From a virus, in the IMG/VR virus record IMGVR_UViG_3300011271_000003, positions 34,805 to 98,804 of that record: a stretch of DNA of 64,000 bases; one strand, written 5' to 3'. This document shows, piece by piece, positions 2,764-42,214 of the stretch. The translations under genes and the position numbers were made by a program. Positions within the stretch are counted from its first letter, which is position 1. Each line of letters begins with the position of its first letter. The notes beneath the pieces were generated by a model. That model had not been told where the DNA came from, did not search any database, and worked only from the letters and a program-made list of their open reading frames with translations.

Positions 2764-2817
2764 TTTCGCTACCAGGTCATTTAAGTTCCCGCCAGTGAAA
2801 GCCGGGACGTGTATCCT

Positions 2818-12289: not shown

Positions 12290-12370
12290 CCTAGCGCCTT
12301 TCTTCTGCAGCTACGCAAGCTCGACAAGGCCTCTTATCTTCAGGTGGGCTATCAAGAAGCCTGAGTAGCC

Positions 12371-23897: not shown

Positions 23898-25000
23898 ATA
23901 ATGAAAAGATTTTAAAGGACCTTTGGCACCTCCTACTCTGACAGCCAGACTCGGAAATCAGGCGTAAGCACCCGATCTAGGTTCGGCGCTAGGCTTCGTA
24001 GCCCTGAAGGCACACGGGCTCCACTGAGTAGGATCAGCGCATCACCCTGACTATAGCCTTGGTCTAGGAGCAGCTCGTGAATTTCAGCTACAATCTGCTC
24101 CTCAGGCGTATAGGCCCAACTCCGGTCACTAATGCGAGGCATGTTCCCTCCCTATCTTAAATGGCATGTCGTCTAAAGCGGGAAGGTCCATGCGTCCTCC
24201 GCCCTGTGGACTTGCAGTCCAACGCGAGTCCGGAACCTGACACGAGATCCACAGGGCGTTGTTTGGCAGCCTCGATTCGCGCTTTCTGAACCGCGGGGTG
24301 GATCGACGTTGCTACTAGAGCTCTGGTCTTGATAGCATCGAAGGTGTCATTGTGGAAGTAGACTCTACCATCTGTCTCGAGTAGCAAAACGGGATCTCCG
24401 TCCTCGCAGTACCAGCTTCCGTCGTAGTGCTTGGTCATAACGTATCGCATTTCTCCTCCAGAATTACGATCCATGATGCGAGGCAGGCCTCGTCGATCTT
24501 GTCGGAGGCGTCTACTAGCTTGGCTATTCTGTCTCGGTATGGCAGGAGCCAGTTTTCTGGGTTCGATGCAGCGCCTGAAGCTACATACAGTACGGCATCT
24601 TCCCCGGCTTCTTCTGCTCTCTGTGTGGCGTCATGCCTTGCCAGCCACTCCAGTTGGCTTATTGCCACTCGATGTGTCCGTTTTTCGTCTTGTGCCCTTG
24701 AGCACAACCACTGAAGCTGATCTAGTACGCCATCCGAGTCTTCATCAGGGTGGAAGAGTACGTCGCACGAATGGTACACACAGCGAATACGCACTTGTGC
24801 CTGACCGTACGGCACTTCGAACGTCATTCGACGCCCTTGTTGTCATAGTAGCCGTCGACTTCTTCACACGTTGCTGCGTGTGAGAAGCCGTGTGCGTCAC
24901 AGTAGAGGTCCTCTGCACTAGCTGGTTGATCCCACCCAAGTGGCTCATTCGCCTCATTGTAGTACACTTCTGAGCCTGCTGGTGGAAACATACTGCCTCC

Positions 25001-25345
25001 TTATCTGTTGATGCAGTGCTGAGGGAGCGTCACCGGCGTTTGACTGGGTGTCGCACTGATAGTAGTTCCGTCGTTGTTCAGAGAGACGCTATACAGGATC
25101 TGTAGGCCGAGGTTCTGAAGGTCCTGGCAGGTAATCAGGTCTGCTGCTGCCCCGCTGCTCTTACCTTTGAGCAGGCCAACGTCTGCTCGCAGTACTGTAA
25201 CCTGACTAGTGAGGTCGTGGTTCTGTCTTGTCAGCCGATTTACGCTATCGTTTGCGTGGTCGCTGTTGATCGCGAGGACAACAACTGCGCTTGAGAGCAG
25301 TCCTCCAACAAGAACGATGCCAAGGTCTTGCCAATTGCCTCTCAC
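25001..25345 (-). CDS. Single-TM membrane protein with coiled coil
   Basis: LGIVLVGGLLSSAVVVLAI, then a heptad segment and two Cys. Confidence 0.6.
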   Translation of the reverse strand: MRGNWQDLGIVLVGGLLSSAVVVLAINSDHANDSVNRLTRQNHDLTSQVTVLRADVGLLKGKSSGAAADLITCQDLQNLGLQILYSVSLNNDGTTISATPSQTPVTLPQHCINR

Positions 25346-25551
25346 GGCTGCAGGTCCTGATAAGGATGTTTGTCCTCGTCTGCTTTGTCCATCTTGTCGA
25401 GCAGGTCGACAATCGCCTGGTCGATGATTACGCCTACTGACGTGTCGTCCATGATAGCGCGTATCTTCAGACGCTTCTTGGTCGCAACCGTTACTCGCAC
25501 CCCGTTCAGGTAGACTAGGGGTGCGTGCTCTGCTTCTTTTTCTTCGGCCAT
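25342..25551 (-). CDS. Ribbon-helix-helix DNA-binding protein
   Basis: GVRVTVATKKRLKIRAIMDDTSVGVIIDQAIVDLL. Confidence 0.7.
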   Translation of the reverse strand: MAEEKEAEHAPLVYLNGVRVTVATKKRLKIRAIMDDTSVGVIIDQAIVDLLDKMDKADEDKHPYQDLQP

Positions 25552-25613
25552 TTGCCTTCTCCCTTCCGCCCCGCTGCCAGGCTTCTGAGACTGGCAGGGA
25601 GGCGCAGCGGAGA

Positions 25614-25829
25614 CTAGCTTGCCTGGGCTTCTGCTTCTACTTCTGCTTCTACTTCCATCTCAGCTTCGGCTCTGATGCCCCGCTTGATAAGTGCTATGCC
25701 AAGCATGAATGCTTGTGTCTGGAGAGTGCTCATGCTGATGCCTCTCTGCGCAGCGAGGATCTTGGCCTCTCTCCGTAGGCTCTCGGGCACGACCGTGTTC
25801 ATCTGGACGGTCTTCTCATCGGTTGCCAT
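25614..25829 (-). CDS. Ribbon-helix-helix DNA-binding protein
   Basis: VQMNTVVPESLRREAKILAAQRGISMSTL; acidic EVEA repeat tail. Confidence 0.75.
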   Translation of the reverse strand: MATDEKTVQMNTVVPESLRREAKILAAQRGISMSTLQTQAFMLGIALIKRGIRAEAEMEVEAEVEAEAQAS

Positions 25830-27864
25830 CGTTCACCTCCTCTACTGTAGGCACTATTAGCTCCTAAAGGGAGGAGGTAGCGACGTGCCATCCATACGTA
25901 CTAGGCGGTCTATCGCGGCTTGTTTCATGTCTAGATCGTGTCCCGTTCTAGGGTTCATGTCCGTTACGGTTTGTCTGATCCAACCTAGGATGCAGTCTGG
26001 ACATGTTGGACATGTTGGGTCAGTGCAGTAGTCGTGCTTGTTCTCTTCAGGCGTCATTTGCCAGTCCCTCCAGGTTGTCTGGTGCCTTGTACCGTGGGTC
26101 AGGTATGAACTGGTCCCCGAGCTTCTTGCCGACTGACATTAGTATGTCTGCCATCTTGGCGAAGTCCCGAGCTGAGTCAAGAGTCGCTAGGCTATCCGCT
26201 AGTACGTCTGACTGTGCCATGAGGTCGTCGATCATCCTCTGTACAGCCTGGACGAGTGCTGAGTATTCAGTAGGGGTAAAAAGCTCAACGTTCGTCCTTC
26301 GTGTGAGGTGGCGACTTCCCAGGTCGGTCAGGTAAGCCTTAAGCTGCTTCGCGTACATAGCGTCGTCTGTAGGATCGTCGACGCGGATGATAAGATGGAA
26401 TTCGGGCACTGTGCTAGCTCCAGAATATTCGAGGTGGCGCGATACCTAGGTGGTCCATCTGAATTTCGGTGTTGCCCAGGCAACGTACTTCGTAGGCGAT
26501 CGAGCTTCCGTCTGCTGCTTGCCAAAGGTAGCCTGGCACGACCTGTGCGAGTTCACCCTTGTCAAAAGCAAGACACCACTCGTCGGAATCGCAGTGTCCT
26601 GGCTGTCTATAGCCTGAGTCGCGACGGGCTGCTTCTGCTAGGACGAACGCTGCCTCTGCATCATTGGCCTCGACAATTTGGTGCCAAGCGATTGTTTCGC
26701 TGTCACCGTAGGGCGCCATTGTATGTTCTTCGATAAGCCAGAACTGACTCACTTGCTTCCTTCCGGAAGGATTGGTTCGTACTCTCTCAGCTCAAGTCCT
26801 AGAATCTGATGCCAAGGAATGAGGTGCTTGCCCTTACTGCTCTTTTCCTGCCACCAAAGGCCGTAGGGCAAATATTTCCACCTGTACTTCCTTGTAGACA
26901 GGAGGAAGTCGAGCGTGCCTCCGTCCATGAACTTGATAGTTAGTACTGACTCCTTCGGTTGCACTGTCAACTTCGCACCTTTCTTAGGCTGGGTTGCGGT
27001 GCTTCGACGTGTAGTTGCTACACGACATTTCTGCGCAGCGGCCCGTGTCGTAATACTCCTCGTGCTCGCATGGCCTATCAGGCCTAGAGTTGTTGTACTT
27101 GGTTACTGCCCTGGTCGCGATCTGTCGGAAGCTCTCCTTGACTGCGTCACGGAGATCGTCCCACTCCACCACGAAGGAAACCTGGGCTGGGAAAATCTCC
27201 CGGAAGGCCTCGTAGACTTCGTGGCCGGCTTCTTCTGTACGGTCTTTCTCGATCATGACTTCTCCGCAATTATGCCTAGGATAGCTAGCGGTACTAGAAC
27301 CGTTGCCCAGTTCCATTGTGAGCAGAGCCAGTAGAAGAGGGAGAATGTGTAGACGTGTGTCATGCCTTGCCCCATTTTGCCGTAGATGCAGTGTTTTCGA
27401 GGTAGACGCCGAAGTCTCCTAGAATCAGCGATAGGTTTTGGACGTCCTCTTCCCAGTGGTCTGTCTGTTCTGGCCCCTCGGAGATGTACTCCTCAAGTGC
27501 CTCTGCTACGGCGCCCTTAAGCTTAGTTATGGCCCAGCCAACATGTGGCGGTACTTCTCCTGTTGTCATATAACTACCCTTCTTGCTGCCCAGTGATTCT
27601 GACAGTCGTTGCTCTCTACGTAGAACGGACACTCCATGTAGCTCAGGTCGATCGCGAAGGTATCGTCTTCCTGGTCAAAGAAGATTGGCTCCCCTCCCAA
27701 GTTCCGCTCATGCCTGAAGCACCAGAATGCGAATACCCACCTGGTCCTAGACAAGTACTTGCGTCTGTCATACTTTGACCGAGCGTTTTTACATTGTTCG
27801 TCGATAGGTTCTCCTCGACGCTTGTGGGCCATGTATGCGGCTAGTGAGCCGCAGTCGTGCTGCT

Positions 27865-28137
27865 TCAGAGCGGACACTGGTCACTAAGCCTCCCATACAT
27901 GTATTGGGCAGTTCGCCAGCTGCTTCCATATGTTCGCTTCAACATGCGCGGAACGTGGTAGGTGTGCATCAGGTTGCCTCGTGCAGTATGGCAGGGATCT
28001 CCAGGCTGTGCACAGCAGTACTCACAATCGACTGCGCGTAGTTCCCTGTTGTGCTCCAGCTCGGACTGGAGTCTTTCCATTGCCACTGCGGTCATAGCCA
28101 TTTTCTGGCCAAGCGTCATCTCAATGTTCGGCTCCAC
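27865..28137 (-). CDS. Phage CxxC-PG-C-H zinc-finger protein
   Basis: VDCEYCCAQPGDPCHTARG....YHVPR. Confidence 0.7.
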   Translation of the reverse strand: MEPNIEMTLGQKMAMTAVAMERLQSELEHNRELRAVDCEYCCAQPGDPCHTARGNLMHTYHVPRMLKRTYGSSWRTAQYMYGRLSDQCPL

Positions 28138-28471
28138 TGCTACCCCCTTACCAATCGTGTAGGCACAGTCCGCAGAACGGAACGTCCACTATCTGCGTCG
28201 CACGGGGTTGTTCGGCGGTCTTGACGACCTCGATGAACTGCTTCTGGGTTGCGTCGAATGTTAGCAGTGCGTTGAACGCGTCTATGACTTCCTGCATCGT
28301 CTGGTAGACATGCTTGCACTCAAAGCACTGGTGGTACGCACCCGTCAGGAGTTCGTGGGTGTGGTGGATGTAGCAGTAGTTCACGTTCCACGTGCACCCA
28401 CCCGTAGGGCACACCCTGCCGAACTGGTGGACGTGTACGGGTTCTACGTACTCGTAGTTCTCCATATAGTT

Positions 28472-28561
28472 CCTCCTTTCAAAGCCCGGCTCAGGCCTTC
28501 CACGGTGGCGATCGTGTGGGTTGGCCACGCCTCCATACCTGAGCCGGACGTTCAACGGAGG
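28472..28561 (-). promoter_or_regulatory. Long intergenic RNA stem with G.G motif, sequestering the SD of gene 28148-28465
   Basis: CCTCC-G-TTGAA-CGT-CCGGCTCAGG...CCTGAGCCGG-GCT-TTGAA-AGGAGG-AACTAT-ATG. Confidence 0.7.
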
Positions 28562-29243
28562 TTACTCCTCGTAGAGGCCGCCTGCGTAAGGTGCATCTGG
28601 TGGGTCCTTGGGTGTTGGAACGTTCCACTGCTCGTTGAAGGCGTCGGTGAGACCTTTGATGACATCCTGCAGGTCGCCAGGATCGAGGTACTTGAGTACG
28701 TCGACGATTTGCTGCGGCGACATTGCGAGATAGGCTACAGCCTCTGAGCCGTCGTCTCGCACTGTTACGATCTGCGTGACAGCGTCGATCGCTGCTGGTG
28801 TCTGCTCGGTCACCTGTACCTCCAGTTCTGCTCGAGATTCGTGTACAGTTCTCGGTCTGACTTGCTTACTGCGTTGCTGGACACTAGGTCAAGCAGCCTT
28901 AGGTACTGGTCGACTGTTACGTACGGAAGCCTAATGTTGTGTCCACCAGGTTCTGGCCGTTGCGCCTCCTCCCGGCTTGGCGTTGGTGCCGCCACATCAT
29001 AGTCCTTCTCAGCCTGACATAGGCTGCACGTATCATGACGGACGTTGTCGTGCATCTTATGTAGTTCGATAGGAGTAATATGGTCCACTTCCCTTTTTGG
29101 TGTCATGTCAGCTCACAACCAGTGTAGGAATTCGCTCGTGTATCCCAGCGTGACACAGAGGAAGAATAGTCCAGGGCATATCCAGCGGTTACGCGGTGCT
29201 CTGATGCCTCTGAAGGCACCGAAAATACCAAAGAATTCGAACA

Positions 29244-29816
29244 TTAGGTTTTCTCCTTTTCTTGTACGAAGTGAGCAGCTAGTGCCTTGTAGTCCTGGCG
29301 AGGCCTTCCCGCCCTCTGCCGAACAAACTGTACTGTCTCCTCAAGGAGGACGCAGTAAGCTATTTCGAATGTCGCTACTAGGTCCTTAACGCGCTCGTGG
29401 GCGTCGTACCCTAGGTCGAACCACTCGCCCTCTTGTCTTTCACGCTGGAGTATCCGATGAAGAAACCGCTCCATCTTTCTTCCGCCACGAAAGGCGTCTA
29501 CAAGGTGCAAGTCAGGACAGCCTACTCGCAGTTGGCTTATTCTGCTGTTAACGCTACTAGACGTAAAGCCTATCTTGTATAGGCCCTGGCGCTCACTGTG
29601 GGCTAGGTAGACGCACCCGCTAGTAGCTTTGATCCAGAGCTCTGCTCTGCGTTTCTGTTCGAGCTCCGAAATTGGTACTACGAAGTCCTCCACCTCGTCT
29701 GTCGCGGTAACTTCTCCGCGCTTCGGAAGCGGTCCCTTAGTCGCCTCTAGTCTGGCTAGAATGGCGGCTCGGCTTTCTCGAATTTCTCGAATTTCTCGAA
29801 TTTCTTCACCATTCAT
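29244..29816 (-). CDS. GIY-YIG nuclease (T5orf172/MUG113-like)
   Basis: VYLA...LYKIGFT....RI.QL.VGCP...ERFLH....EGEWF; a 9-bp tandem repeat encodes EIR x3. Confidence 0.85.
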   Translation of the reverse strand: MNGEEIREIREIRESRAAILARLEATKGPLPKRGEVTATDEVEDFVVPISELEQKRRAELWIKATSGCVYLAHSERQGLYKIGFTSSSVNSRISQLRVGCPDLHLVDAFRGGRKMERFLHRILQRERQEGEWFDLGYDAHERVKDLVATFEIAYCVLLEETVQFVRQRAGRPRQDYKALAAHFVQEKEKT

Positions 29817-29886
29817 TTCCTTGCCACCCTCCTTTAAACCTGTTAGCATTTAAAATTGTTGATGAAAAATCTTTGAGGTGCTCCCG

Positions 29887-31047
29887 TCAGAGCTCCATCT
29901 CACCTGGTGCCGTAGCTGGTTCGACGTGCTTGCCCATAGCTGCTAGTTCTGCCTTGAATGTCTCCTCCAGTTCTTCTCGCTTGTAGCCGTTAGCTGGTCC
30001 GTTGCCAACCCAGACGCTGTGTGCTTCTAGGCCTAGGTTCCTGATTGCCTGCGCGACGGCGCGGCTCCCCTGGTTGAGCGAACTCCACCAGGCTCCGCCT
30101 CCGGCCTCATGTACCTGCTTTGCGATATCGGTGACGGTGAGGTTACCTTCGGTGGTGCATACGATAGCCGCGATGTAGTTCCGAAGCTGATCCTGCGGTG
30201 ACAGGATCGTCTCAGAACTTCCGTTCTTCAGGCTCAGCTCTCTACATGCGTCCATGACCATCTGCGGCCACGCGCCTCCTGCGACCTCTGCGATTTGGAA
30301 TAGTGGCTTCCAGATCTGCCGCATTCGCATCTTGAGGCCAACCATCGATGGCTTCGCGTCCAGAATGTCTTCCAGAACCTGCTGGACACGTGCCCCGAGA
30401 GTTCTGCCTGTCGAACGAACCCACTCTCTGTGCGTCGTGGAGTCGTAGCAGTCGTCGTCATCCATCGGGTGTGGTGGCTTCTCCATGAAGATGATGATTG
30501 TCCGTGTCCGTGTGTCCTCCAGGTGCGGGTTACCGAGGAACGCTGCTTGCTTCCCTGAGAAGGCAAGTGCGGCGAATGTGCTCTGGAACCCTGTTGCGTT
30601 TAGTGACTGTCCGGTGTCCTCGTAGCCGGTGTTCATGATCTCGAAGATACCCTTAGAGCTGTTGCCTACTCTGGTGACGAGCTTGTGTATCTCGTCCATG
30701 CAGAGCGTCGCTCTCTGTTCTCTGATCACGTTCAGCAGTCCTGGAGCTGTTGCTGTGCTGGCGCCAAAAAGCTTGCCGTTCCGCGACATCAGGCCGTTCA
30801 GCTTGAGTATTGTCGTTTTGCCGCACTCGGAGGTCTCTCCGAGAATGCCCAGCCTTGGCGTCTGGTCGTATGCCAGCTGGTTGTCTGGTGGCTTGATGCA
30901 CCAAGTATGCGCATCCCAAAGCGCCATTGTCGATGCTTTCGCGATACTTAGCGTTGGACTGAACAGGTGAAAAATGTCCATCGCTTCGGTCAGCGCCATG
31001 TCAAGCGGTGTACGCTCAACATGGACTACTGGTGATTCTTCTGACAT
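29887..31047 (-). CDS. P-loop NTPase, DUF3631-like (replication/primase-associated)
   Basis: PRLGILG...CGKTT, TLCMDE, NTGY, TRTIII.M, WKPLFQIAEVAGGAWP. Confidence 0.75.
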   Translation of the reverse strand: MSEESPVVHVERTPLDMALTEAMDIFHLFSPTLSIAKASTMALWDAHTWCIKPPDNQLAYDQTPRLGILGETSECGKTTILKLNGLMSRNGKLFGASTATAPGLLNVIREQRATLCMDEIHKLVTRVGNSSKGIFEIMNTGYEDTGQSLNATGFQSTFAALAFSGKQAAFLGNPHLEDTRTRTIIIFMEKPPHPMDDDDCYDSTTHREWVRSTGRTLGARVQQVLEDILDAKPSMVGLKMRMRQIWKPLFQIAEVAGGAWPQMVMDACRELSLKNGSSETILSPQDQLRNYIAAIVCTTEGNLTVTDIAKQVHEAGGGAWWSSLNQGSRAVAQAIRNLGLEAHSVWVGNGPANGYKREELEETFKAELAAMGKHVEPATAPGEMEL

Positions 31048-31327
31048 GATTTCCCTATCGGTTGTAGTCCTACCCTTTGCTACTTACCCCTTTTCTACAT
31101 TCGCTACTGTTGTGACGAAGACGTCTGCGTGATACTTTTTGCCTTCGACGTTCCCAGCCTGTGTGGTAGCAGAGTCGGTTTTGCCTGCCTCGTAGACACA
31201 ATAAGGATCGCTTACAGCTAGCTCGGCATTGTCGAAGAACTCTTTTGCCTTCTCGAATGCGTCCTCTTGGATCTCTTTGTTAGTGTCACCAAATGCGAGA
31301 ACATGTAGTACTCCGTCCATGTTGTTT

Positions 31328-31384
31328 ACCTCCTTTCAGGACCAGCTCGAGTTGGGGAACTCGAGCTGATCCTCAACCGGAGGT
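31328..31384 (-). promoter_or_regulatory. G.G-motif RNA stem sequestering the SD of gene 31084-31320
   Basis: ACCTCC-GG-TTGAGGATCAGCTCGAGTT/AACTCGAGCTGGTCCTGAA-AGGAGGT. Confidence 0.75.
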
Positions 31385-31447
31385 GCAGTTTGTGGTCAGC
31401 ACCAGGGTTGACCAACCGTCCAGATCAAGGTGTTTGTGTAGCCCCGT

Positions 31448-31465
31448 TCACTCCTCAGCGGCCAT
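31448..31465 (-). CDS. 5-codon minigene MAAEE
   Basis: Perfect SD AAGGAGGTGA followed by CACG-ATG; lies between two G.G stems. Confidence 0.5.
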   Translation of the reverse strand: MAAEE

Positions 31466-31529
31466 CGTGTCACCTCCTTCGTCGTATGACAGAGGACAGT
31501 CCATAAGGGTACCTGCATGGTACAGGTGG

Positions 31530-31602
31530 CCCTGCCCTCAAAGTCCGCCTCGGTTCCCAGCGTCTCTTTTGAGGCCCACCGAGGCGGCCGTTCAGGGAAG
31601 GA
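31530..31602 (-). promoter_or_regulatory. G.G-motif RNA stem with alternative pseudoknot pairing
   Basis: TCCTTCCCTGAA...TTGAGGGCAGGG enclosing CCGCCTCGGT/ACCGAGGCGG. Confidence 0.65.
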
Positions 31603-32973
31603 TCACGCTTTCAGTTGGTTTGGGCCTTCTACGATATGGAACGGCCCGCCGGGATGGTCGGACCAGGCGGACCAGGCGGGAGTGCTGCCAGATCGCAGCA
31701 CTTCGAGTAGGTTGCGAAATCCCTGCTCGTCGTCGAACTCGATCCTGTACACCTGTGTTACAGGATACGTTACAGTCGGTGACTCGATGTCGGCTTCGGT
31801 TGTGATGTCTGTGACGGTGCTAACGTAGGTAATGAGCGCTTCAGGCATCTCAGATCACGTCCTTCTCTGTCATTATGTGTCTCTGCTCCTCGGACCTGTA
31901 AAAGTCGTTGCCGACCTTACTCCAGTCGTGGCCCTCGGCACACTGCCAGTGGCTTCCAGTTCCTGGAGCACCATAATGCCCCTGGAATCGCAATTCCACC
32001 AAGGCGCCTCGATCGTGCAGCGGACATACTCCCTGACGTAGCAGAACCTGCTGAAGCTGGTGTATTGCCTGCTCAACGTCTGACGTGAGCGTCAGCCTCA
32101 CGTCCGGGCACTCAGGCATTGCTCCTCCATGGAGTAAAGGCCTCTGGCGTCGCTGGTACCCAGCATCTACCGTCAAGGCTGCAAGCGTGCCCTTCCTGTA
32201 GTTCATGATCCGGATGCCAGGGCGCTGGACAGAGTTCCCACCAGTTCTTGCTGTCGAACATGACGTTCGGACGCTTAGGCATTTTTCACCTCCGTCTCTG
32301 CGGCGTAGCTTCCAATCACGTCGCTCAGGCTCGTTAGTTCGTCCTTACTGCTCGGGAGCGTGCAGTGGTAGTACGCACGGTCTTGCTCAGCCGCACTCTG
32401 GCAGTACAAGGTCACAAGGTTTGGGTCACGGTCTGCTCTGATCGCCCAGCCCTGCTTCTGCTCAGCCTCCGTCAGGTCTGTTATCGCTTCTGCTGACATG
32501 TTCACCTCCTCTCGAAGATCACCTTCGGGTTGAGAATGTACTCGGTCTCGCTGTCGTAGCGACTCAGCATACCCATTCCGGCCTCGACTCGGTACACTGC
32601 TCCCCAGACTGTTTGCCCCTCAGGTGTCGTGTACTCCACGATCCGTACGACATCGAATCGCATGCCGTCCTCGGGATCAGCCTCGCCGTTCCTGGCGATC
32701 ATCTTGTCGATGATCTCCTTAGTGACGAATGTGCCCACTACACCATCTCCTCTGCGAACTGCTTGATGCTGAGTGCCAGGTTCAGCAGCTCAGTCTTGTC
32801 CGTCGGTAGGTGGGTATGGTAGTACCCTATCGGTACGGTTGCGTCCGTGCGCTGTGTGTAGAGCTTCAGCTCCGGCCCACGTTCGCCTGCCACGTAGCGG
32901 AATGCTACGTGGCGCTTCTGCTCGCTTGGCGTCAGGAAGATCGCATCTTCCCAGCTTTCGATTGACATGTTTA

Positions 32974-33034
32974 ACCTCCTTTCAGGATTGCTCCCGCCTC
33001 TGTGGCGAGCACGGGAGCAATCCTCAACGAAGGT
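32974..33034 (-). promoter_or_regulatory. G.G-motif RNA stem sequestering the SD of gene 32738-32968
   Basis: ACCTTC-G-TTGAGGATTGCTCCCG/CGGGAGCAATCCTGAA-AGGAGGT. Confidence 0.75.
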
Positions 33035-33055
33035 GCCGTCGATCGTGCCGTTCTA

Positions 33056-33088
33056 TCAGGAGCTGTCGCTACGGCCGTTGAGTTTCAT
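33056..33088 (-). CDS. 10-codon minigene MKLNGRSDSS
   Basis: SD GGGAGGTGA followed by CCGA-ATG, double stop TGATAG; lies between two G.G stems. Confidence 0.5.
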   Translation of the reverse strand: MKLNGRSDSS

Positions 33089-33101
33089 TCGGTCACCTCC
33101 C

Positions 33102-33230
33102 TCCTTCCTTCAATCGCCTGCACGAAGGAGATACGCACCATGAGCACGCATTGGCTCATACTATCCACCGGCGTAGCCCGGTGAGGTGCACTTGCGTTCT
33201 TTTCCGTCGTGCAGGACGTTCAAGGTAGGA
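33102..33230 (-). ncRNA. Multibranch structured RNA element closed by a G.G-motif stem
   Basis: TCCTACCTTGAA/TTGAAGGAAGGA, CCTGCACGA/TCGTGCAGG, GCACC/GGTGC, CACCGG/CCGGTG, ATGAGC/GCTCAT. Confidence 0.6.
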
Positions 33231-33738
33231 TCTAGAACAGACTAAGCTTCCGGGCGCGTGCTGTGTACTCGTTCAGGAGCGCTGCGACCTTGGTGAGAGT
33301 CTCATACAGAAACGCCTGATCTTCGAGGTTCTCTGGCGTGTTGTCGACGTAGAACGCACGCCACGGCTCAAGCTCGTACTTCTCGTTCAGGAGCTCATTC
33401 TGCGATTGCTGCATCATCTTGACAATGCTGGTCTCGAGGAGCGTCTTGTACTCCAGCAGTGCAAACCAGATCGTTGCGAAGGTCATGTCTGTAGTAGTAG
33501 GAAGAATTACCTTCCCTGACATGTCGCCGACGGCCTCAGTAATGGCCGTCGGCGACCTCACGATGCCTGTCGTGTCGCTGTTCGTTTGGTATCGCGTCAG
33601 AAGCTCCGTGACAGTCAGTGCGATCGATTCGTTGTCACTCTGACCGTGCTTCGACATAAAGTCGAAGAATGTCTCGACTGCAGTCTTTCGCTCTGCGGCT
33701 GAAAGCCGAGCATGCTCGTCCGTCATCTGTTTCACCTT

Positions 33739-34155
33739 TCAGGCTACGTGGTCCCACCAGTGCGGCTGTCCTGGCTGGTCGGGACCCTCTTCGGTCTCGC
33801 ACCGAGCCTCGAGGCTCGTGTACCTGCTTGAGAAGGTTCCATCGTCCAGCTCGATGTACTCGACTGTTACTTTGTGCTTCGGGTTCGCTGCTACATGTGC
33901 CTCGGCAGCGTTGCAGTACTCGTACGTGTAGTTTCCGTCAGCGTGTAGTTCTGAGAACGTTCCATCATACGCCAACCTCAGGACGTCCAGCGCCACGAAG
34001 ACCGCATCACGTCCCGTGGCTTCGTTGTCGAAGGTGTAGTCGTTCATGTCCGCATAGTAGGCGGCCGCAGTATATACCTTGTCAGGTACTATGTCGGCTG
34101 CCTCGGTACCGTTGACTCCCTCATATGCGGACTTTACATCAGCCGCTGTTACCAT
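33739..34155 (-). CDS. Hypothetical protein, paralogue of 4729-5058
   Basis: YTAAAYYAD and ALDVLRLAYDGTF. Confidence 0.7.
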   Translation of the reverse strand: MVTAADVKSAYEGVNGTEAADIVPDKVYTAAAYYADMNDYTFDNEATGRDAVFVALDVLRLAYDGTFSELHADGNYTYEYCNAAEAHVAANPKHKVTVEYIELDDGTFSSRYTSLEARCETEEGPDQPGQPHWWDHVA

Positions 34156-35343
34156 GTTACCTCCGCCGGTCCTGTCTTCTCCGTCTCTGCGTTGACTAGA
34201 GTCGTTCTGTACTCGCTTCCCGCGAGCCAGCAGCCAAAGTCCTTAATCGTAGGCGTCACTCCTGTGTAGCCTGAGTGACCTTGGAATGTCTGCCAGAAAC
34301 CCAGAATCTCGAAGATCGTAGGCCACTTGCTGCTGTCCACTTCGTCGCCATCATAGGTGACGTCGACTGGCTCCTGCTCACGAAGCTCTTGCAGCCTCGC
34401 CCGGTCCTCTTCAGAGCCTCCGCCACCGATTAGTGCCTGTTCGATACTCATGTTAGGCTCTCGATCGTAAGCTGCCTGTCCGCGACGCAGAATAGGTACA
34501 GGTCGTTTAGGTACTCGTCCGACGGAACCCGACCTGGCTCGTCCGGGTACAAAACTTCTACGTACTGAGCTACGCGGTCGATTGCCTCGACGCTAGGTCT
34601 GCAGCAGCCACACTCAACCGCTGCACGAACTCTCTCCTTGAGCTGCTCGAGGTTCATGTGAAGTCCACCTCTTCCACCTGCTTGATAATCCCCGTACCTG
34701 CTACGTTCCACTCGTACGTGTTGCCGTGTTCATCTACGGCGTAGTAGCCGTATGACACCAGAGCGTCCCGGGCTTCCTCCTCTGTATCGACCTTACTCAG
34801 CTCGTTACCTGAGTCGTCGAAAACCGTGAAGTCAGGCTCGTCATGACGCTCGACGGTTGCCTTGTTCGACTTTACGAGGTCCCATGTCTGGTCGAACACG
34901 GAATCTAGTGCGTCGTCGTAGGCTTCGACTCCTCTTTCAGTTCGTCCCACTCTTCGGGACTCTCATAGTCATCCTCACTCCAGGTAACGAAAGCCTCAAT
35001 CGTTACCTTGTACCTTACCCGGTCTGTCACGTTCCCCAGCCTCCCCTTCCCCTAATGTCGAAGCCTACGTACTCGGTCAGCTTGACGCCGATCAGGAATG
35101 GCCGGACCTCTTTCGGCATCTCGTCCAGGTCCGTGGACTTGTCAGGACCGTCCGAGATTAGCAGTGCTTCCCATGCCAGACGCCGCAGCTGATCTGCATC
35201 AAGCTGGTAGAGCCGCTCCATGCACTCCTGCATGTAGTCCCGTTCTAGATCAGTCTTTCCGGGACCTGCTGCATCAGACCCTGTTTCCCAGGACATTTCT
35301 GCACCTCCGGCTCATAAACACTTAGTCTTTTTCTCTCAATAAT

Positions 35344-35376
35344 ATTATATTATAGGTCACTGGGAAATATCAAGGG
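35344..35376 (-). promoter_or_regulatory. sigma70-type promoter
   Basis: CCC-TTGATA-N18-TATAAT with UP-like tract. Confidence 0.8.
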
Positions 35377-35390
35377 ATATTTAAAAGAAT

Positions 35391-35726
35391 CTATGGGAAT
35401 TTATGGAACCCATAATCGGGTAGTGCAGGACGCCGACGCTTCGCCCGGTCTATCTTCTCTTGCAGTTGTACTCTCCTCCGCTCGGAGACATACGGCATCA
35501 CACGCTCTGCGAAGGTCCACGCGCCGTGACCAGTCAGTTGCCACTGGTACTTACATCCTGTGTTGTACGGGCCGCCTACTTTGCCACCGAATACCGTAAC
35601 AAGGCGGTCTAGGGGCTCTCTTTCCTTTTGTGGTGCACTGATCCCCAAGTAACCGCCAGGAAGCCCAACGCAGCCTTCTCCTTCCCAGAAGCCTACAGCC
35701 CACGCAAACCAGTCGAAGTCGTCCAC
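35391..35726 (-). CDS. Free-standing single-motif LAGLIDADG endonuclease
   Basis: AWAVGFWEGEGCVG, Q...EPL..L...FGG.V, YQWQL, VMPY. GTG start after AGGAGG. Confidence 0.8.
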   Translation of the reverse strand: MDDFDWFAWAVGFWEGEGCVGLPGGYLGISAPQKEREPLDRLVTVFGGKVGGPYNTGCKYQWQLTGHGAWTFAERVMPYVSERRRVQLQEKIDRAKRRRPALPDYGFHKFP

Positions 35727-36108
35727 GGTGCCTCCTAGTCGGCTATTCGGGCTATCAGTCCGAGGTCCGTTGCTATGCCGAGATTCTCGGTAGCCTCGGC
35801 TAGGTCTTTGCACCTCTGTCAGACTCCAGGAAACGCAAACATCACCGGGTCATCCGTACGTCCCGTTTTTGGTGTCACCTGCATGATCACTATGTGTACT
35901 CGTTTAGCCTTCTCACGACCGCAGTCGGCACAGACCGATACGTCCGTATGGTGGAAGTAACCTGATCCGAAATGCCTAATGTCCAGACCCCAATCCTCGT
36001 CGCCTCCTTCCAAGCATGGTACCTTCTCCACCATGTGGTGGTACCATCCTGCCTCTACCGATGTGTTCCGCACCGGGCCCTCCTTTCCTGAAGTCCACAG
36101 GACGTCCA

Positions 36109-37015
36109 CTATCTTAGTTTCCCGGCCAGAGCTGCCAACAGCATGTCACAAGCCTTATCATAGTCGCTGCTGGCCCCTGTCGCATCCGCAATTTCAAACA
36201 GCGCCTCAATCGCCTTGGCCGTTCCTGGCATACACGCATATGATAGCTCTCGTCTGTCTTTGTGTACCCATTTCGCCCTCGCCCACTTACCCACTCCAAT
36301 TGTGCACGCCCTACCTGGCCTAGCTCGACAGTAAGGACAGAAGTAGTCCCTGACGGCAGCGTTGGCAGCGTCGTTCTCTGCCCTCCCTGGCTCTGCCACC
36401 TTTCGCCTGATGGTACCGAGACATTTGTCACATTGCAAGTTTGGGTACCCAGCATCGTTTCCGCACCCCTTAACGCACTTCATTCTTCGTACCCCGCAGG
36501 AGGTGTGTCCCCATACATCTGACGATAAATGTGTCGCTCGTAGAGCCAGTAGTATATCTGCTTCCGCGCAGAGTGTATGGTGCCAGGTGTTTCTTTACCT
36601 GCTGGATTTGTACAGGGTCTGCCTTGAATGCCTATGCATTCTGGTTTCGGGCAGGTAACTCTCCTGAATCTTGCGTCGCTCATCTGCGCCTCCTAGGCCG
36701 CTCTAGCGTCGCGTCGTAGGCCTCCCACCTAGTGCGGTGCACGGCCTCCATTGGTGTCCTGGTGACCGGTGTCACGCATGCAAACTTTTTCTTGGCATCA
36801 CATGTCGGACAATCCACGCAGTATCTGGGCAAGCGGTTGTTTGCGTACGCCAGAGTGTCGTTGCTAGCTTCTACGGAAATGCGTCCATCGCCAGCGACTA
36901 CGTCTACCCGGGCCCTATGCGGTCGTGTCAGCCAGGCTCCTGCGGCCGAGCGACACGGATCGTCCGGCTGCGCTGCACAAGTTGGACACGCTACCGCGAG
37001 CCAGGCACCTATCAT
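36109..37015 (-). CDS. Three tandem zinc-finger genes (36109-36483, 36480-36683, 36680-37015; the last has two fingers)
   Basis: CPYCRARPGRAC..H.DR; CPKPEC...GRPC..HSAR; CPTCAAQPDDPC..HRAR; CPTCDA....C..HRTR. Confidence 0.75.
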
Positions 37016-37650
37016 GATGGCGGCCCTAGGCTACCAGGCTCGCGGTAACTCGACGGGTCTACAGCAGACTCGCCTGTGTCGTACGTGTCCGACAGCTGCG
37101 GCGCCTTTGCTTGCAAGTCCACAGGCCGTGGGCTGTCGTTTTCTGACAGGTCATACAGCTTGTTGAGCCGCTCTTCCTCGAGTGGGTCCGGAGGATCGAT
37201 CTCCAGGCTGATCCTTGCCTCCTCTGCAGGCGTCAGCTCTCTACGGAATTCGAGAATGTGCGCGATCCTGAAGAGCCTGACCGCTTCCTGATATGGAACA
37301 TCCCACCGCGGGTGCGGCGTAGTGGCATTTAGCATTCTGTCCTCGGTTGCTACTACGTTGGCTTGCTTGGCCGCAAGCTCCGCTTTTGTGTAGTAATGCC
37401 TGATGATCGGTGCTAGCACCCCGTAGTCGTATTGTGGCGCGCCATACCGGTCTGGAGCCTGGAGTTCCTCCCACGCACACCGCTCGATAATACTCCTAAC
37501 CCTAGAGGTAATGGTGGTTCTCTTATTTCGTGACTCTAGGTGCTGCAAACAATAGGACGTTTTTTTGTACTTTGGCTCAGGGGAGCTAACACCTTCGGCG
37601 ATGCAGTCAATACAGTCAGGCTGTCTGCTCATTTGTTTCCTCGTAGTCAC
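37012..37650 (-). CDS. Hypothetical protein with N-terminal CxxC/CxxH zinc motif
   Basis: 212-aa ORF directly downstream of the 37687 promoter; CIDC...YCLQH. Confidence 0.6.
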   Translation of the reverse strand: MTTRKQMSRQPDCIDCIAEGVSSPEPKYKKTSYCLQHLESRNKRTTITSRVRSIIERCAWEELQAPDRYGAPQYDYGVLAPIIRHYYTKAELAAKQANVVATEDRMLNATTPHPRWDVPYQEAVRLFRIAHILEFRRELTPAEEARISLEIDPPDPLEEERLNKLYDLSENDSPRPVDLQAKAPQLSDTYDTGESAVDPSSYREPGSLGPPS

Positions 37651-37686
37651 GTAGGTTGTTAGCGACTCTATTACACAGTACTCTTA

Positions 37687-37716
37687 ATTATAATGTAAAA
37701 CCACGAGAATACGCAC
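37687..37716 (-). promoter_or_regulatory. Promoter GTGCGT-N18-TATAAT
   Basis: Same -35 hexamer and spacing as the late promoter at 42361. Confidence 0.55.
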
Positions 37717-37719
37717 GGG

Positions 37720-38070
37720 GTAGATATTACAAAGTAACCCAAGCTAGATATAGCAGTAATTTCTTGTAACCGCACGTTAATCGCGGTATGTCGCTACCTG
37801 AAAATCTACCGCTCCATAAGCACCCGGTCCGACTCGCAACTTTAAGGATAAGACTATAACACTGTTATTATTAAATACTATTATATAGTGATATTCAGGC
37901 ACACCCACCTGGTAGTAGGCATTCTTGCCACTATTTACAGTAATCAAATACCCAGCTATTAGGTTGCGCGTAAAATTACATGGAGATTACGTGATTACTT
38001 CTTACAAGTACAAACATTACAATTAAGCACTTATGCGATTACAAGATTACACGTGATTCCGGCTAAGGTT
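37720..38070. repeat. AT-rich non-coding region with clustered ATTAC/GTAA repeats (origin or genome-terminus signal)
   Basis: ATTAC at 37975, 37986, 37994, 38016, 38038 and 38046; TATTATTAAATACTATTATATA tract. Confidence 0.6.
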
Positions 38071-38077
38071 TTGGGCA

Positions 38078-38123
38078 AGAGAAAAGGGCGTGGAATCTCA
38101 TGAGATTCCACGCCCTTTTCTCT
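38078..38123. terminator. Perfect 46-bp palindrome; probable terminator for the leftward early block
   Basis: AGAGAAAAGGGCGTGGAATCTCA|TGAGATTCCACGCCCTTTTCTCT immediately after the stop of 38125-38454. Confidence 0.7.
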
Positions 38124-38810
38124 GTCAGAAAGGCTCTGGTTCGCGCGTAATTCCCATGCGCTTAGCCTGCCAAGCCTTCATCGTCTTCACGGTGCGGCCG
38201 TTGACACGGATTACGTACGTGGCCATCTCGTCCAGACGCTCGGTGTCCGTGATAGAAACATCAAAGACCACAAGTCGCTCTTCGCGCCGGTACGCGTCTC
38301 CGACCTTACGGCCATCCTGAGACACGTCCGAGCCGTAGCGGGTGTCTTCGTACGCTACGAAGACGCTTTGGCGACTGCCATGATTGTTTCCTATCTGGGA
38401 ACATACAGGTTGTAGGGCCGTCTTGGTGGCGCCTCTGAAAGAGAGGGAGCCCAATATAGTTCTGAGTCTGGAGGGACAGGAAGATCAGGCTGGACAACAT
38501 CCCGCCCTGTGGATTCGTTGCCTCTTAGGGAGCCCCGGTGTAGGTCCGCCCAGAACATTTCGTCGAGGTCGGCCTCGGGGTCGTCTACCACAGGCCGTCG
38601 AGGTGCCCGCCCAGACTGACGAGAGGCTGAATGAAGTGCCCGCCCCACCAGTAGACGATGAACATGACGTGGCCGAACTCCATTACAAACAGAGGGAACA
38701 TGACTTTCACCTTTCTCCGGAATTCAGACTGATTCTGAATCCACGGCAACCTGCCAGGCCTCACTCGTCCCGAAGGAGTCTTGGCTCTTGGCCTGGCAGG
38801 AAGCCCTAGT

Positions 38811-39155
38811 TCAGTTGTGTCGGTAGGTGTCGGTCACGCGGACCGTGTCGGCCTTGCTGACGCTGACCATGTGCTCGTGCGACCACCAGAGGCGGTTGTC
38901 GTCGTCCTTGTAGGTGTTGGCGGTGCTGTGCGCGCCCGTGTAGCTGAGTGAGTAGCGATGCGTCCACTCGTCGAAGTTGCCCACGCCGCAGGCAACCTTG
39001 TGACGGTTCGTCCACGTCTGCGATCCCCTGGAGGAGATCGAGTACGTATGCGTGTTCGTGGTCGTGCACCTAGCGGCCGATGCGGGAATGGCTCCGAGGA
39101 GCGTCCCTCCGGAGATTGCGACGACACCGGCGAGGCTGAGAAGCTTGCGATTCAT
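38811..39155 (-). CDS. Secreted His/Thr/Tyr-rich small protein
   Basis: Signal peptide MNRKLLSLAGVVAISGGTLLGAIPASA; three TH.Y/H-like beta repeats. Confidence 0.7.
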   Translation of the reverse strand: MNRKLLSLAGVVAISGGTLLGAIPASAARCTTTNTHTYSISSRGSQTWTNRHKVACGVGNFDEWTHRYSLSYTGAHSTANTYKDDDNRLWWSHEHMVSVSKADTVRVTDTYRHN

Positions 39156-39576
39156 GATTTCACCCTTTGTTTCATTGCTAGTTCTGCGAGGTCGACTAGT
39201 AGTTCGGAAAATCGGGTTTCGAGCTCCCGCAGGAGCTTTCGGATCACGTCAGGTCGGCTTCGATGTCCAGAAGCTCCTGTTGCGCCAGCTCTTCGAGGAT
39301 CTCGTCGGAGTCGTCGAGACGGGGTCCGTCGGGCTGACCGGTGTAGCTGGTGTAGACCAGCTCGCTGTAGGCCACGTCAGATCGTCTGCCAGTTCGACAC
39401 GCTGGCGTCCCAGACGTTGTCTTCGCCGTCGACGGCGTAGTACTCGACGTCCGTGTCGTCGTCGTCCCATAGCTCGTAGGGCATGGTCTCACCTTTCGTT
39501 GCCGCCCTGGATAGGCGGACTTGACGGGGGAACGCCCCTCTCGAGGCGTTCCCCATCAGGCCCGTCCAGCTAAGGA

Positions 39577-40005
39577 CTACTCGGCCTCGGTCTCGGACTT
39601 CTCGCCCGTTGCGGTCTCGTACAGCTCCTCGTCGGTCGAGTGCACGTCGACAGCATCGGTCACGGCCTCGTCGACGGCCTGCTCGCCATCGTCCGTACCG
39701 TCCTCGGTGGCCTCGGCGAGGAACTGCTGCGCCAGCGCGGCGTAGTCGACACGGCCAGTGCCGGCGACGAAGCCGCCCGCGAGGCGCATCTTGATGTACT
39801 CCGCGACCGCGTCGCCGTCGAAGTACTTCTTCTTGTCGCCCGGAATCGTGACGGTCTTGATCGCCTGCCGCGAGTGCATGCCGTAGAACGGCTGCGGGGC
39901 GAACTCCTCGCCGGTCAGCTCGGACAGGACCTTCGCCAGCCCGTACGGGGTAAGGTGCGGGTGGACGACGGTCTGCACTTCGGTGGAACTGGACTGCTCG
40001 GACAT
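39577..40005 (-). CDS. Early DNA-binding-like protein (LTPY...PQPFYG family) with acidic tail
   Basis: LTPYG, PQPFYG, FDG and RVDYAALAQQFL shared with 41826-42140. Confidence 0.8.
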   Translation of the reverse strand: MSEQSSSTEVQTVVHPHLTPYGLAKVLSELTGEEFAPQPFYGMHSRQAIKTVTIPGDKKKYFDGDAVAEYIKMRLAGGFVAGTGRVDYAALAQQFLAEATEDGTDDGEQAVDEAVTDAVDVHSTDEELYETATGEKSETEAE

Positions 40006-40294
40006 GATTCCTCCAGGAATCGTTTTGTACGCAATCTGCGTACGCGTCCAGGCTCCTTGCGGAGCCTCGACGTCTACGTAGGTTACCTGTTCTGCATCTG
40101 TCCGCCGGTGATGCTGTGTGCTTCGAGGGTTCTGATTCCTACGAAGTAATCCGCATGCTCTTCGAACTCGTAGCGGAAGATCTCCGTGTGCATCGGCTCG
40201 CCGTCCTTCTCAGGAACAACGAGTGTAACGATTACTTCGACCATTTCGGTTTCCTTCCGGAACTGTAATTGAGTATTATTTTTGCTCTACTTTA

Positions 40295-40327
40295 ATTATA
40301 TAGTGGCGATTGTGTAAATCTCAAGTG
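40295..40327 (-). promoter_or_regulatory. Strong sigma70-type promoter
   Basis: CAC-TTGAGA-N18-TATAAT preceded by phased A/T tracts. Confidence 0.8.
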
Positions 40328-40362
40328 CTTTTGAAAAGAACTTTTGGGAAATTTTTGACTTG

Positions 40363-40409
40363 GGTAGGAGCGGGAGCATCGCCGAAATTCTAATGCTCCC
40401 GCTCCTACC
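40363..40409 (-). terminator. 17-bp-stem hairpin (terminator or processing site)
   Basis: GGTAGGAGCGGGAGCAT/ATGCTCCCGCTCCTACC. Confidence 0.6.
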
Positions 40410-40808
40410 GGCTCTAGCGGTTGCGTCGTTTGTCGTCACGCCTGTTCAGGATGACGTTAGTAACTACGATCAGTACCACGAGCAGTACCGCGTAGCCTAC
40501 GAGCCACGGGATGTAGATCATCGTTCTCCCTTTCCTAGTAGGTCTCGCCAGTAGCCGAGCCATCCGTACCCTGCGGCCTTACTGAGGGCACAGTTTCACC
40601 GTTTGTACCTTTCAGTCGTCGCAGCCTTGACTGCACTTACCGTTTCTGCTCCGTGCGATATTACACGTCGGGCAGATGCTGTTCGGATTGTACCTGCCGG
40701 TCAGCTTCTCGTCGGCAATTTGGTCTAGTAGTTCAGCAGAGGGTTGCTTCCGTAGATCGCACGGACACTTCTCGTACATCATCTGCTGCTTCGTAGTGTA
40801 CGGGCTCC

Positions 40809-41249
40809 TCACTTCTCCTCCAGGTACTGAGCTGCTAGAGCCGCCCAATCGGTTTTACCGTTTCGGCCGCCTCCGTTCGCTCTGCTTCCGCGTCGAGAGG
40901 TCTTGTTCGACTGTGTCGGTTCTCCGGTAGCTTTTCCGCTCCGGAAGTTCTGTGCCGGATTGTACTGATCATTCGGTCCGACTTCTCTTGTAGTCGTAGC
41001 ATTCTCGTCGAGAAGCGGAGTTACGTTCCATCTCGACTCCGGAACGTAGATTGCTCGGATCGTATTCGGACTCTGTCCGCTTACGATTCGTCCTTCTCTG
41101 GACTGCATCCGAGCTATCTTCGGCATCCGACGTTTCGGCGTCGCCGGAGGTCTCCGAATTTCTCGGTCAGCCGCTTGAACGTATTCGAGCCACTCTTGTT
41201 CCTGATGCTGTCGGAGAAGTTTGTCTCGCTTCCGTTCGTTCTCGTTCAT
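40809..41249 (-). CDS. Basic early protein sharing a C-terminal helix motif with 39577 and 41826
   Basis: GRNGKTDWAALAAQYL. Confidence 0.7.
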   Translation of the reverse strand: MNENERKRDKLLRQHQEQEWLEYVQAADREIRRPPATPKRRMPKIARMQSREGRIVSGQSPNTIRAIYVPESRWNVTPLLDENATTTREVGPNDQYNPAQNFRSGKATGEPTQSNKTSRRGSRANGGGRNGKTDWAALAAQYLEEK

Positions 41250-41297
41250 CTCGTCTCCTTCCGAATTTTGTTGTAAATAGATTTATTTGTTATTTAT

Positions 41298-41329
41298 ATT
41301 ATATTATAGGATCTATGGAAAATCTAGTG
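41298..41329 (-). promoter_or_regulatory. sigma70-type promoter
   Basis: CA-CTAGAT-N18-TATAAT in very AT-rich DNA with upstream A-tracts. Confidence 0.65.
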
Positions 41330-41781
41330 AATTTGATTGGGAAATTTTTGGAATTTTTCATCGACTCTCTCCGTGCTCTTTGCACAGCTTGACGGTACCG
41401 TTCCGGAAGAACTCACAGGCCGGGCACCCTGCGACGAGCCACCGGAGTAGATCCGGTAGTCCGTTGTAGGCCGGCAGCTTCGGGGGCTTCATCGACTGAG
41501 TCCCGGATACTTGTCGGTCTTGCAGTCTAGCGCGTGCTTGTAGCCGGCGATTGCGCCGCACTCCGGACACCACGCACGTTCCCGTAGGTATGCCTGGTAT
41601 GCCGGTTCGCCGTCCTTACGGCGAACGTCAGCTAGCTGACGGGCAGTACGTTCTTCTTTCGTCATTTCCGTTTTCCTTTCGGATTTTCGGCATTCTGAGT
41701 TTTCGGATTTCCGACTAATCGGAAGATCCGGTTCTATAGGATCATTGTTTTGTTTAACGTTTAACGTTTACCTACTAGTAT

Positions 41782-42214
41782 TACAACTTAACAACTCAAT
41801 AGTGTGTTTGTGTGTGTTAAACGTTCTAGCTAGTTGTTGACGTCTCGTTCACGTATTGTGTTGCGAGCTCTGAGTAGTTGACTTTACTTCTTCCTGAACG
41901 ACCGTTCTTGCGGTTGTCGATTTCTTGTGTCAACCACTTGTTGAATGACTCACCATCGAACATCACTTTGATTCCATGACCCTTACCACCAGCAGCTTTG
42001 AACTGCTTGTAGTTCGATGCGATCGTTCCTGACTTCGCGTAACCATAGAATGGTTGTGGATCTAGCTCGACGTTGATGTGGTTCTTCGCAAACATGATGT
42101 TGGTGATCATCATCGCAGCGTAAGGTGTGAGATCTTGCATGTTGGTTCACTCATTTCTTTTGTTGAAGTTTTGTTTGATCTCACACAAACACACTATTGA
42201 GTTGTCAAGTTGCA
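41782..42214 (-). repeat. 33-bp inverted repeat (41782-41814 / 42182-42214) enclosing gene 41826-42140; includes boxA at 42194-42208
   Basis: 31/33 Watson-Crick pairs; both mismatches are G.U on the - strand transcript. Confidence 0.9.
41826..42140 (-). CDS. First gene of the leftward arm; LTPY...PQPFYG family protein
   Basis: Paralogue of 39577-40005. Confidence 0.8.
   Translation of the reverse strand: MQDLTPYAAMMITNIMFAKNHINVELDPQPFYGYAKSGTIASNYKQFKAAGGKGHGIKVMFDGESFNKWLTQEIDNRKNGRSGRSKVNYSELATQYVNETSTTS

Follow-up and report, generated by a model that had tools for sequence, protein, structure and literature searches.

Stop-proximal hairpins in an uncultivated phage

Five hairpins lying between small genes in a 64,000-nt stretch of an uncultivated phage genome are copies of a clade-wide cis-acting mRNA module, a 'stop-to-SD clamp', in which a helix with two fixed mismatches follows the stop codon of the upstream gene and frequently masks the Shine–Dalgarno (SD) sequence of the next. 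The stretch, here called the window and used for all coordinates unless another record is named, comprises bases 34805–98804 of the 98.8-kb IMG/VR record IMGVR_UViG_3300011271_000003 (phage G000). From ~42 kb leftwards its genes lie on the minus strand, and the RNA of the elements was therefore read as the reverse complement. We tentatively favor a T7-type processing signal for host RNase III that would also keep the SD masked, to be released by the cut or by a terminating ribosome.

In minimum free energy folds of the minus strand, all five hairpins had a common base of the form CCUYC, N, YUGAR, variable stem, YUGAR, (A), GGAGG. Its outer helix of 4–6 bp, in which CCUYC pairs with GGAGG, GGAAGG or GGCAGG, is followed by a 1–2-nt loop, two base pairs, a 1×1 G.G mismatch flanked by U-A and A-U pairs, two further base pairs and the inner stem. 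Three hairpins (type A: w1, 28472–28561; w3, 31531–31601; w5, 33103–33229) carry an extra single mismatch before the stem, which in the other two (type B: w2, 31329–31383; w4, 32975–33033) directly follows the pairs flanking the G.G. Dinucleotide shuffling yielded z-scores of −5.1, −7.5, −2.4, −6.8 and −4.0 for w1 to w5, which make up five of the eight strongest inverted repeats between 24 and 43 kb (I2, I4, I5, I6, I8). A purpose-built scan of the whole 98.8-kb genome returned only these five as strong matches, all on one strand and within 4.8 kb; its remaining matches were no better than those in first-order Markov random sequences with the dinucleotide frequencies of the genome.

The covariance model R1 was built from an alignment (A2) of nine type-A copies from five records, three from the window and six from other phages. 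With filters off, it called exactly six significant sense-strand copies in the window (E 1e-18 to 6e-4). The first 34.8 kb of the genome contained no R1 match. w1, w3 and w5 scored 76.9, 56.1 and 74.6 bits, the non-seed copies w2 and w4 26.0 bits (E 1e-4; hit span 31327–31385) and 23.1 bits (E 6e-4; hit span 32973–33035), respectively. The sixth copy (3671–3787, minus strand; 25.7 bits, E 1e-4) lies outside the reported span. It combines a 9-bp outer stem of non-SD sequence with CUGAA/UUGAG and its G.G, a U.C mismatch and CCC:GGG, folds at −54.0 kcal/mol and is followed 14 nt downstream by an SD (GGAGGUGA). Shared-base folds, genome-wide scan and R1 matches thus bear out the initial annotation, which had reported five stretches with unrelated inner stems and a conserved G.G and had bounded them correctly to within 1–2 nt; its description was incomplete, however, in that it overlooked a second conserved mismatch, the tight abutment on stop codons and the sixth copy.

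Two further SD-adjacent hairpins, proposed as relatives without the motif, do both fold, but neither is a significant member: 25556–25615 reached 9.7 bits (E 2.1), and 39507–39570 had no R1 match. The former (minus strand) shows an arrangement of UCUCC/GGAGA, U-A, G.G and C-G like that of G001b, a copy from a related phage, and may, judging by this sequence, be a decayed relative. A cmscan of window 24000–42000 against Rfam at E up to 1 gave 0 matches and no support for a suggested analogy to rRNA processing stalks and boxA. Identity with tRNA-like or Y-RNA-like molecules was rejected, with neither an ARAGORN nor an Rfam match. CRISPR-repeat or RNA anti-CRISPR mimicry, prompted by the 3′ UUGAAAG, was discarded as well, as the stems all differ and form no array.

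Distribution among related phages

Relatives were reached via the portal protein and via DNA patterns filtered for stems; the short patterns (CCTGAAAGGAGG...ATG, two gapped TTGAACGTCC...TTGAR patterns and a 16-mer) gave mostly chance matches, with a handful per scan passing the stem or model filter. Across at least 14 contigs of related IMG/VR phages, R1 identified ~30 distinct copies. Among the 12 records G001–G012, 11 were positive with 1–5 copies each, and G013, G014 and further contigs also contained copies (R1-positive records include G001–G004 and G006–G014). G010, rated complete at 36.7 kb, has a tandem pair of copies and few small genes in common with the clade; as it contains the element and lacks a homologue of the clade's portal, the family extends beyond one structural lineage. 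The two copies of this pair (locus L444, contig 34147–34305) stand in direct tandem with one common UUGAA, downstream of a 407-aa gene.

Anatomy and covariation of the lower helix

Thirty copies were aligned on the mismatch for a position-wise tally. The 5′ arm has the consensus (A)CCUCC, N, YUGAACGUCC(K)GCUCG and the 3′ arm CGAGC(M)GG(R)CN, UUGAR, (A), GGAGG. The conserved part is the lower helix of ~23 positions, kept in both sequence and pairing, and is topped by an apex of ~15 to ~100 nt, sometimes branched, without common sequence. The G.G is present in 27 of the 30 copies. Three positions further in lies the second, pyrimidine mismatch (C.C in 18 copies, C.U in five, C.A in three), unpaired in 28; the two A-U pairs that separate the mismatches hardly vary and precede a U.G or U-A pair. 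From −8 to +14, most positions are paired in at least 25 copies, with −7, −3 and −2 paired in 18–20. The hairpins fold at −36 to −71 kcal/mol.

Of the 21 pairs in the seed, 14 changed on both sides, with 93% of cells paired; none of 500 shuffles reached the seed value, and slid registers gave at most 54% pairing. The 11 non-seed copies aligned by the model gave the same result (pairing 93–94% over both sets), although the copies in these tests had been selected or aligned with structure in mind. Positional orthologues provide independent support: w1 and the copies G001b and G004a of related phages follow homologous upstream genes (43–55% amino acid identity) and have alike arms and unrelated apices, and in G001b an A-U pair next to the G.G is changed to C-G while the G.G is kept. 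A k-turn or tandem sheared G.A register for UGAA/UGAA was rejected, since the shift breaks the flanking helices and the C-G pair of G001b favors the simple register.

For 22 out of 27 copies, the sense fold was more stable than the antisense fold (Wilcoxon p 0.0005; mean 4.4 kcal/mol), and G.U pairs numbered 80 in sense versus 52 in antisense. All inspected copies were co-oriented with their flanking genes, and in the promoter and terminator scan neither a promoter nor a U-tract terminator overlapped the window copies. This strand bias, together with the co-orientation and the missing promoters and terminators, points to an element that acts in the transcript. A sigma-70 promoter within the arms, with TTGAAC as its −35 box, was rejected for want of a conserved −10 box and of a scan match.

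Along the same lines, it is very improbable that the copies are DNA-level elements, such as mobile palindromes resembling miniature inverted-repeat transposable elements or cassette boundaries that shuffle small early genes in the manner of the PeSLs of T4-type phages. The arms do resemble 23–25-bp terminal inverted repeats, PeSLs offer a precedent (PMC2839356, PMC4122927), the genes around the elements are arranged differently in G000 and G001, and in G007 and G009 (94% identical) an indel ends exactly at the element's 5′ edge. However, copies of one genome have no common interior sequence, orthologous copies keep the arms and not the apex, flank inspection found no consistent target-site duplication, no promoter lies inside, and the G.U and stability bias is that of the sense strand. 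The indel (~240 nt in locus L135 of G007, 674–1005, versus 24 nt in locus L139 of G009, 3124–3240), whose edge is the 5′ end of the common element, suggests that the arms can act as recombination joints. Given this edge and the shuffled gene order between G000 and G001, the conserved arms may recombine as a side effect. The small early genes of window 28000–36000 are homologous to those of G001 24000–32000 and reordered, in a mosaic early region.

Placement between stop codons and Shine–Dalgarno sequences

In 21 of 27 copies, an upstream open reading frame (ORF) of at least 45 aa terminates a few nucleotides at most from the outer stem, near enough for a ribosome terminating there to open the anti-SD. 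The helix usually starts 0–3 nt from the upstream stop, which often touches the CCUCC. Type-B copies stand off the stop, w2 by 12 nt and w4 by 22 nt (12–22 nt or more for the set of w2, w4 and G012b), and for w2 and w4 the stop is not near enough for a terminating ribosome to open the anti-SD. On the other side, a GGAGG-type SD forms the outer stem's 3′ strand in 18 of the 27 copies, with a start codon 3–12 nt further on, and the anti-SD covaries with the SD (UCUCC/GGAGA, CCUUCC/GGAAGG, CCUCC/GGAGG). The remaining copies have outer stems of non-SD sequence; two of these mark the end of a transcription unit, with a sigma-70-like promoter 20–50 nt downstream. As the non-SD copies keep the helix with other outer stems, the constant core of the module is the two-mismatch helix placed after the stop, and SD masking is a frequent addition. 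Regarding the SD hiding ascribed to three of the five reported stretches, it holds for 28472–28561, 31329–31383 and 32975–33033 (modelled SD unpaired probability ≤0.004), the other two pairing the SD-like GGAAGG and GGCAGG; with about one third of family members lacking SD involvement, it is an add-on and not the core.

In partition-function modelling, the SD of intact hairpins was unpaired with a mean probability of 0.08; the value rose to 0.49 when the 11 nt next to the stop were kept open, and to 0.43 when the 3′ fragment was modelled by itself. A clamp that couples translation without any cleavage would exploit precisely this arrangement: the hairpin would juxtapose stop and start, a terminating ribosome would melt the anti-SD, and it or a new ribosome would initiate, the mismatches easing the unzipping. 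The abutment on stops in 21 of the 27 copies, the covariation of anti-SD and SD, and the rise in modelled accessibility from 0.08 to 0.49 argue for such a clamp, which we nevertheless consider somewhat unlikely as the whole explanation. In about a third of the copies the outer stem contains no SD, two copies are followed by promoters, the type-B copies w2, w4 and G012b lie 12–22 nt or more from any stop, and a short anti-SD hairpin would be enough; the near-invariance of UGAACG/CNUUGA and the conserved CC(K)GCUCG stem find no explanation in such a model.

Very stable hairpins directly after stops (−36 to −71 kcal/mol), two of them just upstream of promoters, might also suggest a factor-independent terminator, an attenuator or a passive 3′ stabilizer at cistron ends, with the SD pairing being incidental. 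That no U-tract follows any copy, that the terminator scan gave no match at the elements, whose 3′ flank is an SD instead, and that anti-SD and SD covary makes this quite unlikely; the conserved mismatches would, in addition, be left without explanation.

A putative RNase III processing signal

According to the tentatively favored reading, the lower helix would be a T7-type processing signal read by the host RNase III. Ideal substrates of this enzyme comprise 22 bp, mismatches or loops at the target site lead to cutting of only one strand and hence to stabilizing 3′ hairpins, and five such signals are carried by T7 early mRNA (PMC3867540). The fit of the present family lies in its conserved length of about two helical turns, its central irregularities and its intercistronic position in a phage early transcript. 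With this geometry, cleavage that switches on translation, as the initial annotation had inferred, would be plausible. In detail, the helix amounts to ~22 bp of coaxial double-stranded RNA (dsRNA), barring the two mismatches and the outer positions −7, −3 and −2, and the six window copies all occupy intercistronic positions in a polycistronic transcript, between ORFs of the same direction and without an intervening promoter.

Lying at the center of the two turns, the mismatches would allow only one strand to be cut. If this cut fell in the 3′ arm, the upstream cistron would keep the hairpin as protection of its 3′ end, and the downstream mRNA would be released with its SD free; with the hairpin kept upstream, copies at transcription-unit ends would make sense, too. 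Before or without a cut, exposure of the SD would require a ribosome that terminates at the adjoining stop to melt the anti-SD, and translation of the downstream gene would thereby be coupled to the upstream gene across an insert of 60–150 nt. The phage contains no gene for RNase III or a protein with a dsRNA-binding domain, so that the enzyme would be host-encoded; a phage-encoded reader of this type was rejected on the same grounds. A Mini-III site was likewise rejected, its ACCU being found in only five copies and not fully paired.

Several points weigh against RNase III. Mapped sites of the B. subtilis and E. coli enzymes are >90% paired beside the scissile bonds (PMC11780869), unlike the present helix with its two mismatches near the center. 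UGAACG and CNUUGA are nearly invariant, beyond what degenerate proximal and distal boxes need, and such sequence conservation would fit a sequence-specific protein better. In addition, R1 (filters off) found no significant match in the host-takeover region of SPO1 (positions 1–14000; best 12.5 bits, E 0.08), for which Bs-RNase III sites have been reported, and one copy on a contig of 63% GC (locus L503, 13485–13583, minus strand; CUCGA/UCGAG) has the G.G replaced by C-G with the C.C mismatch kept. The structural bias of the covariation tests mentioned above belongs here as well.

The element could, alternatively, be bound by an RNA-binding protein or a nuclease that is sequence-specific and either encoded by the phage or specific to the host. 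The groove would be widened for recognition by the G.G and C.Y mismatches, and binding would repress or time downstream translation. Mismatch nucleotides kept in 27–28 of the 30 copies, neighbors invariant beyond the needs of pairing, and confinement of the family to phages with common early genes are in line with this. We still judge it unlikely: no candidate protein was found, RNA-binding and RNase domains are absent from the proteins scanned, the flanking genes are for the most part unrelated from one copy to another, which argues against autoregulation by a neighboring gene, and G010 has the element with only few small genes in common and without the clade's portal. Autoregulation by a neighbor was rejected also because the genes after w2 and w4 are not paralogues. 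A shared small protein encoded near copies in G012 and G013 (window 6727–6933) was dropped as a candidate, being acidic and without evident RNA-binding character.

A broader idea, to which we assign a low probability, regards the juxtaposition of stop and SD as a prokaryotic counterpart of ribosome shunting or long-range termination–reinitiation. The ribosome would be handed across the 60–150 nt, and the mismatches would be read by a sequence-specific dsRNA-binding factor, of the phage group or its hosts, that decides between hand-over and cut. The readings discussed here are not mutually exclusive.

Comparison with known systems

None of the compared systems fits by its defining features. ROSE and fourU thermometers hold an SD in a helix weakened by non-canonical pairs, a G.G in the case of ROSE; they reside in the 5′ untranslated regions of heat-shock or virulence genes and melt near 37–42 °C, whereas the present family is intercistronic, folds at −36 to −71 kcal/mol and lacks the UYGCU signature of ROSE. 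At the Bs-RNase III sites of the Bacillus phages SP82 and SPO1, too, hairpins that resemble each other recur among the small early genes, the phage is large, and its host relies on strong SDs of the GGAGG type; in the early region in the SPO1 terminal redundancy, however, the best R1 match (12.5 bits) falls on a terminator-like hairpin, and SPO1 is AT-rich compared to the 55–68% GC of the family.

In T7, gene 0.3 is subject to translational activation by processing. The T7 signals R0.3, R0.5, R1, R1.1 and R1.3 likewise are several intercistronic hairpins in one polycistronic early transcript (PMC3867540), with a conserved lower stem, irregularities at the presumed target and a variable upper stem, and with the same expected outcome, in which the upstream mRNA ends in a 3′ hairpin and the ribosome site downstream is set free. 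They differ in having no sequence similarity to the family and an asymmetric internal loop instead of two single mismatches. The base of the present elements is, moreover, tied to a stop and an SD.

Start-associated sequences (SAS) and extended SAS (ESAS) of Cluster K mycobacteriophages and Cluster EF Microbacterium phages overlap the SD of some non-structural genes in one orientation, with an inverted repeat upstream and function unknown (PMC3203893; PMC7302621). The motif at the SD, the single orientation and the inverted repeat are shared traits, yet the 13-bp SAS motif GGGATAGGAGCCC (PMC3203893) is absent from the family, whose 3′ arms read YUGAR(A)GGAGG. Departures within the ESAS inverted repeats do not support RNA pairing (PMC3203893), as opposed to the strong covariation seen here. 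PeSLs, finally, are conserved intergenic stem-loop motifs bordering the small variable ORFs of a mosaic early region (PMC2839356, PMC4122927); they consist of an early promoter plus a terminator-like stem-loop, whereas the present elements contain neither a promoter nor a U-tract. The hairpins therefore form a sequence family not described before within a known kind, the phage intercistronic hairpins, and are marked by stop abutment and the two fixed mismatches.

Copies and gene context in the window

All window copies are on the minus strand. w1 (28472–28561; −48.3 kcal/mol, SD unpaired probability 0.002) runs from a UAA stop through CCUCC, G and the UUGAACGUCC stem to GGGCU, UUGAA, A and GGAGG, with the AUG after 6 nt; the gene it masks at the SD (28148–28465, minus strand) encodes 105 aa. 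In w2 (31329–31383; −40.6 kcal/mol), from which the second mismatch is absent, CACCUCC, GG and the UUGAGGAUC stem lead to GGUC, CUGAA, A and GGAGG, with the AUG of a masked 78-aa gene (31084–31320, minus strand) after 8 nt. w4 (32975–33033; −41.3 kcal/mol) is built of CACCUUC, G, the UUGAGGAUU stem, AAUC, CUGAA, A and GGAGG, and 6 nt later follows the AUG of a masked gene for 76 aa (32738–32968, minus strand). None of the three products had a family match.

w3 (31531–31601) abuts the UGA stop of the gene at 31603–31848 and has the outer stem CCUUCC/GGCAGG, a poor SD. w5 (33103–33229; −60.6 kcal/mol), with a branched apex, starts 2 nt past the UAG stop of the gene at 33232–33735 and has the outer stem CCUACC/GGAAGG. 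In both long intergenic regions, the copy at the stop is of type A and the one at the SD of the next gene of type B. Each spacer (both on the minus strand) contains a GGAGGUGA SD with a mini-ORF, of 10 codons between w5 and w4 (33056–33100) and of five codons between w3 and w2 (31448–31477). GGAGGTGA occurs eight times on the minus strand of the window and not at all on its plus strand.

The promoter-like site nearest upstream of the five elements, and the best sigma-70-like one there, is found at 35373–35344 (minus strand; TTGATA, 18 nt, TATAAT; 11 of 12 positions, by consensus match only); it is likely the start of the transcript that carries them. The proteins encoded around the elements are small and without assignment, except for a 386-aa DUF3631 protein, for which a pattern search gave no IMG/VR relative, and a T5orf172 protein.

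The 98.8-kb record has direct terminal repeats, the window has a GC content of 55.6% and, according to ARAGORN, no tRNA gene, and in a megablast search the region matched no GenBank phage. The structural block includes a Mu/P23-45-type portal and a Mu-like protease. The nearest cultured phages reach a portal identity of only 26%, and a search of bacterial genomes gave only 30% matches on short contigs of Chloroflexota metagenome-assembled genomes; with hints this weak, a host assignment was dropped.

Two further repeats were noted outside the family. A 38-nt inverted repeat (89% complementary; 41784–41821 and 42175–42212) encloses a 104-aa gene, the first after a divergent promoter region; this long-range stalk around a protein gene may be another substrate for dsRNA processing. 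A perfect, spacerless palindrome of 23+23 bp lies in AT-richer surroundings at 38078–38123.

Implications

If the favored reading is true, a clade of uncultivated soil-type phages punctuates its early transcript with a compact, sequence-defined RNA module that ties downstream translation to processing or to upstream termination. The two invariant mismatches predict strand-selective RNase III cutting in hosts beyond E. coli and Bacillus, and the combination of a short conserved base with any apex would make the module a ready part for studying or engineering control at the level of the cistron. With its ~30 covarying members, the family enlarges a catalogue of phage cis-regulatory RNAs that is still small, and it may help explain how small early genes are shuffled among related phages.

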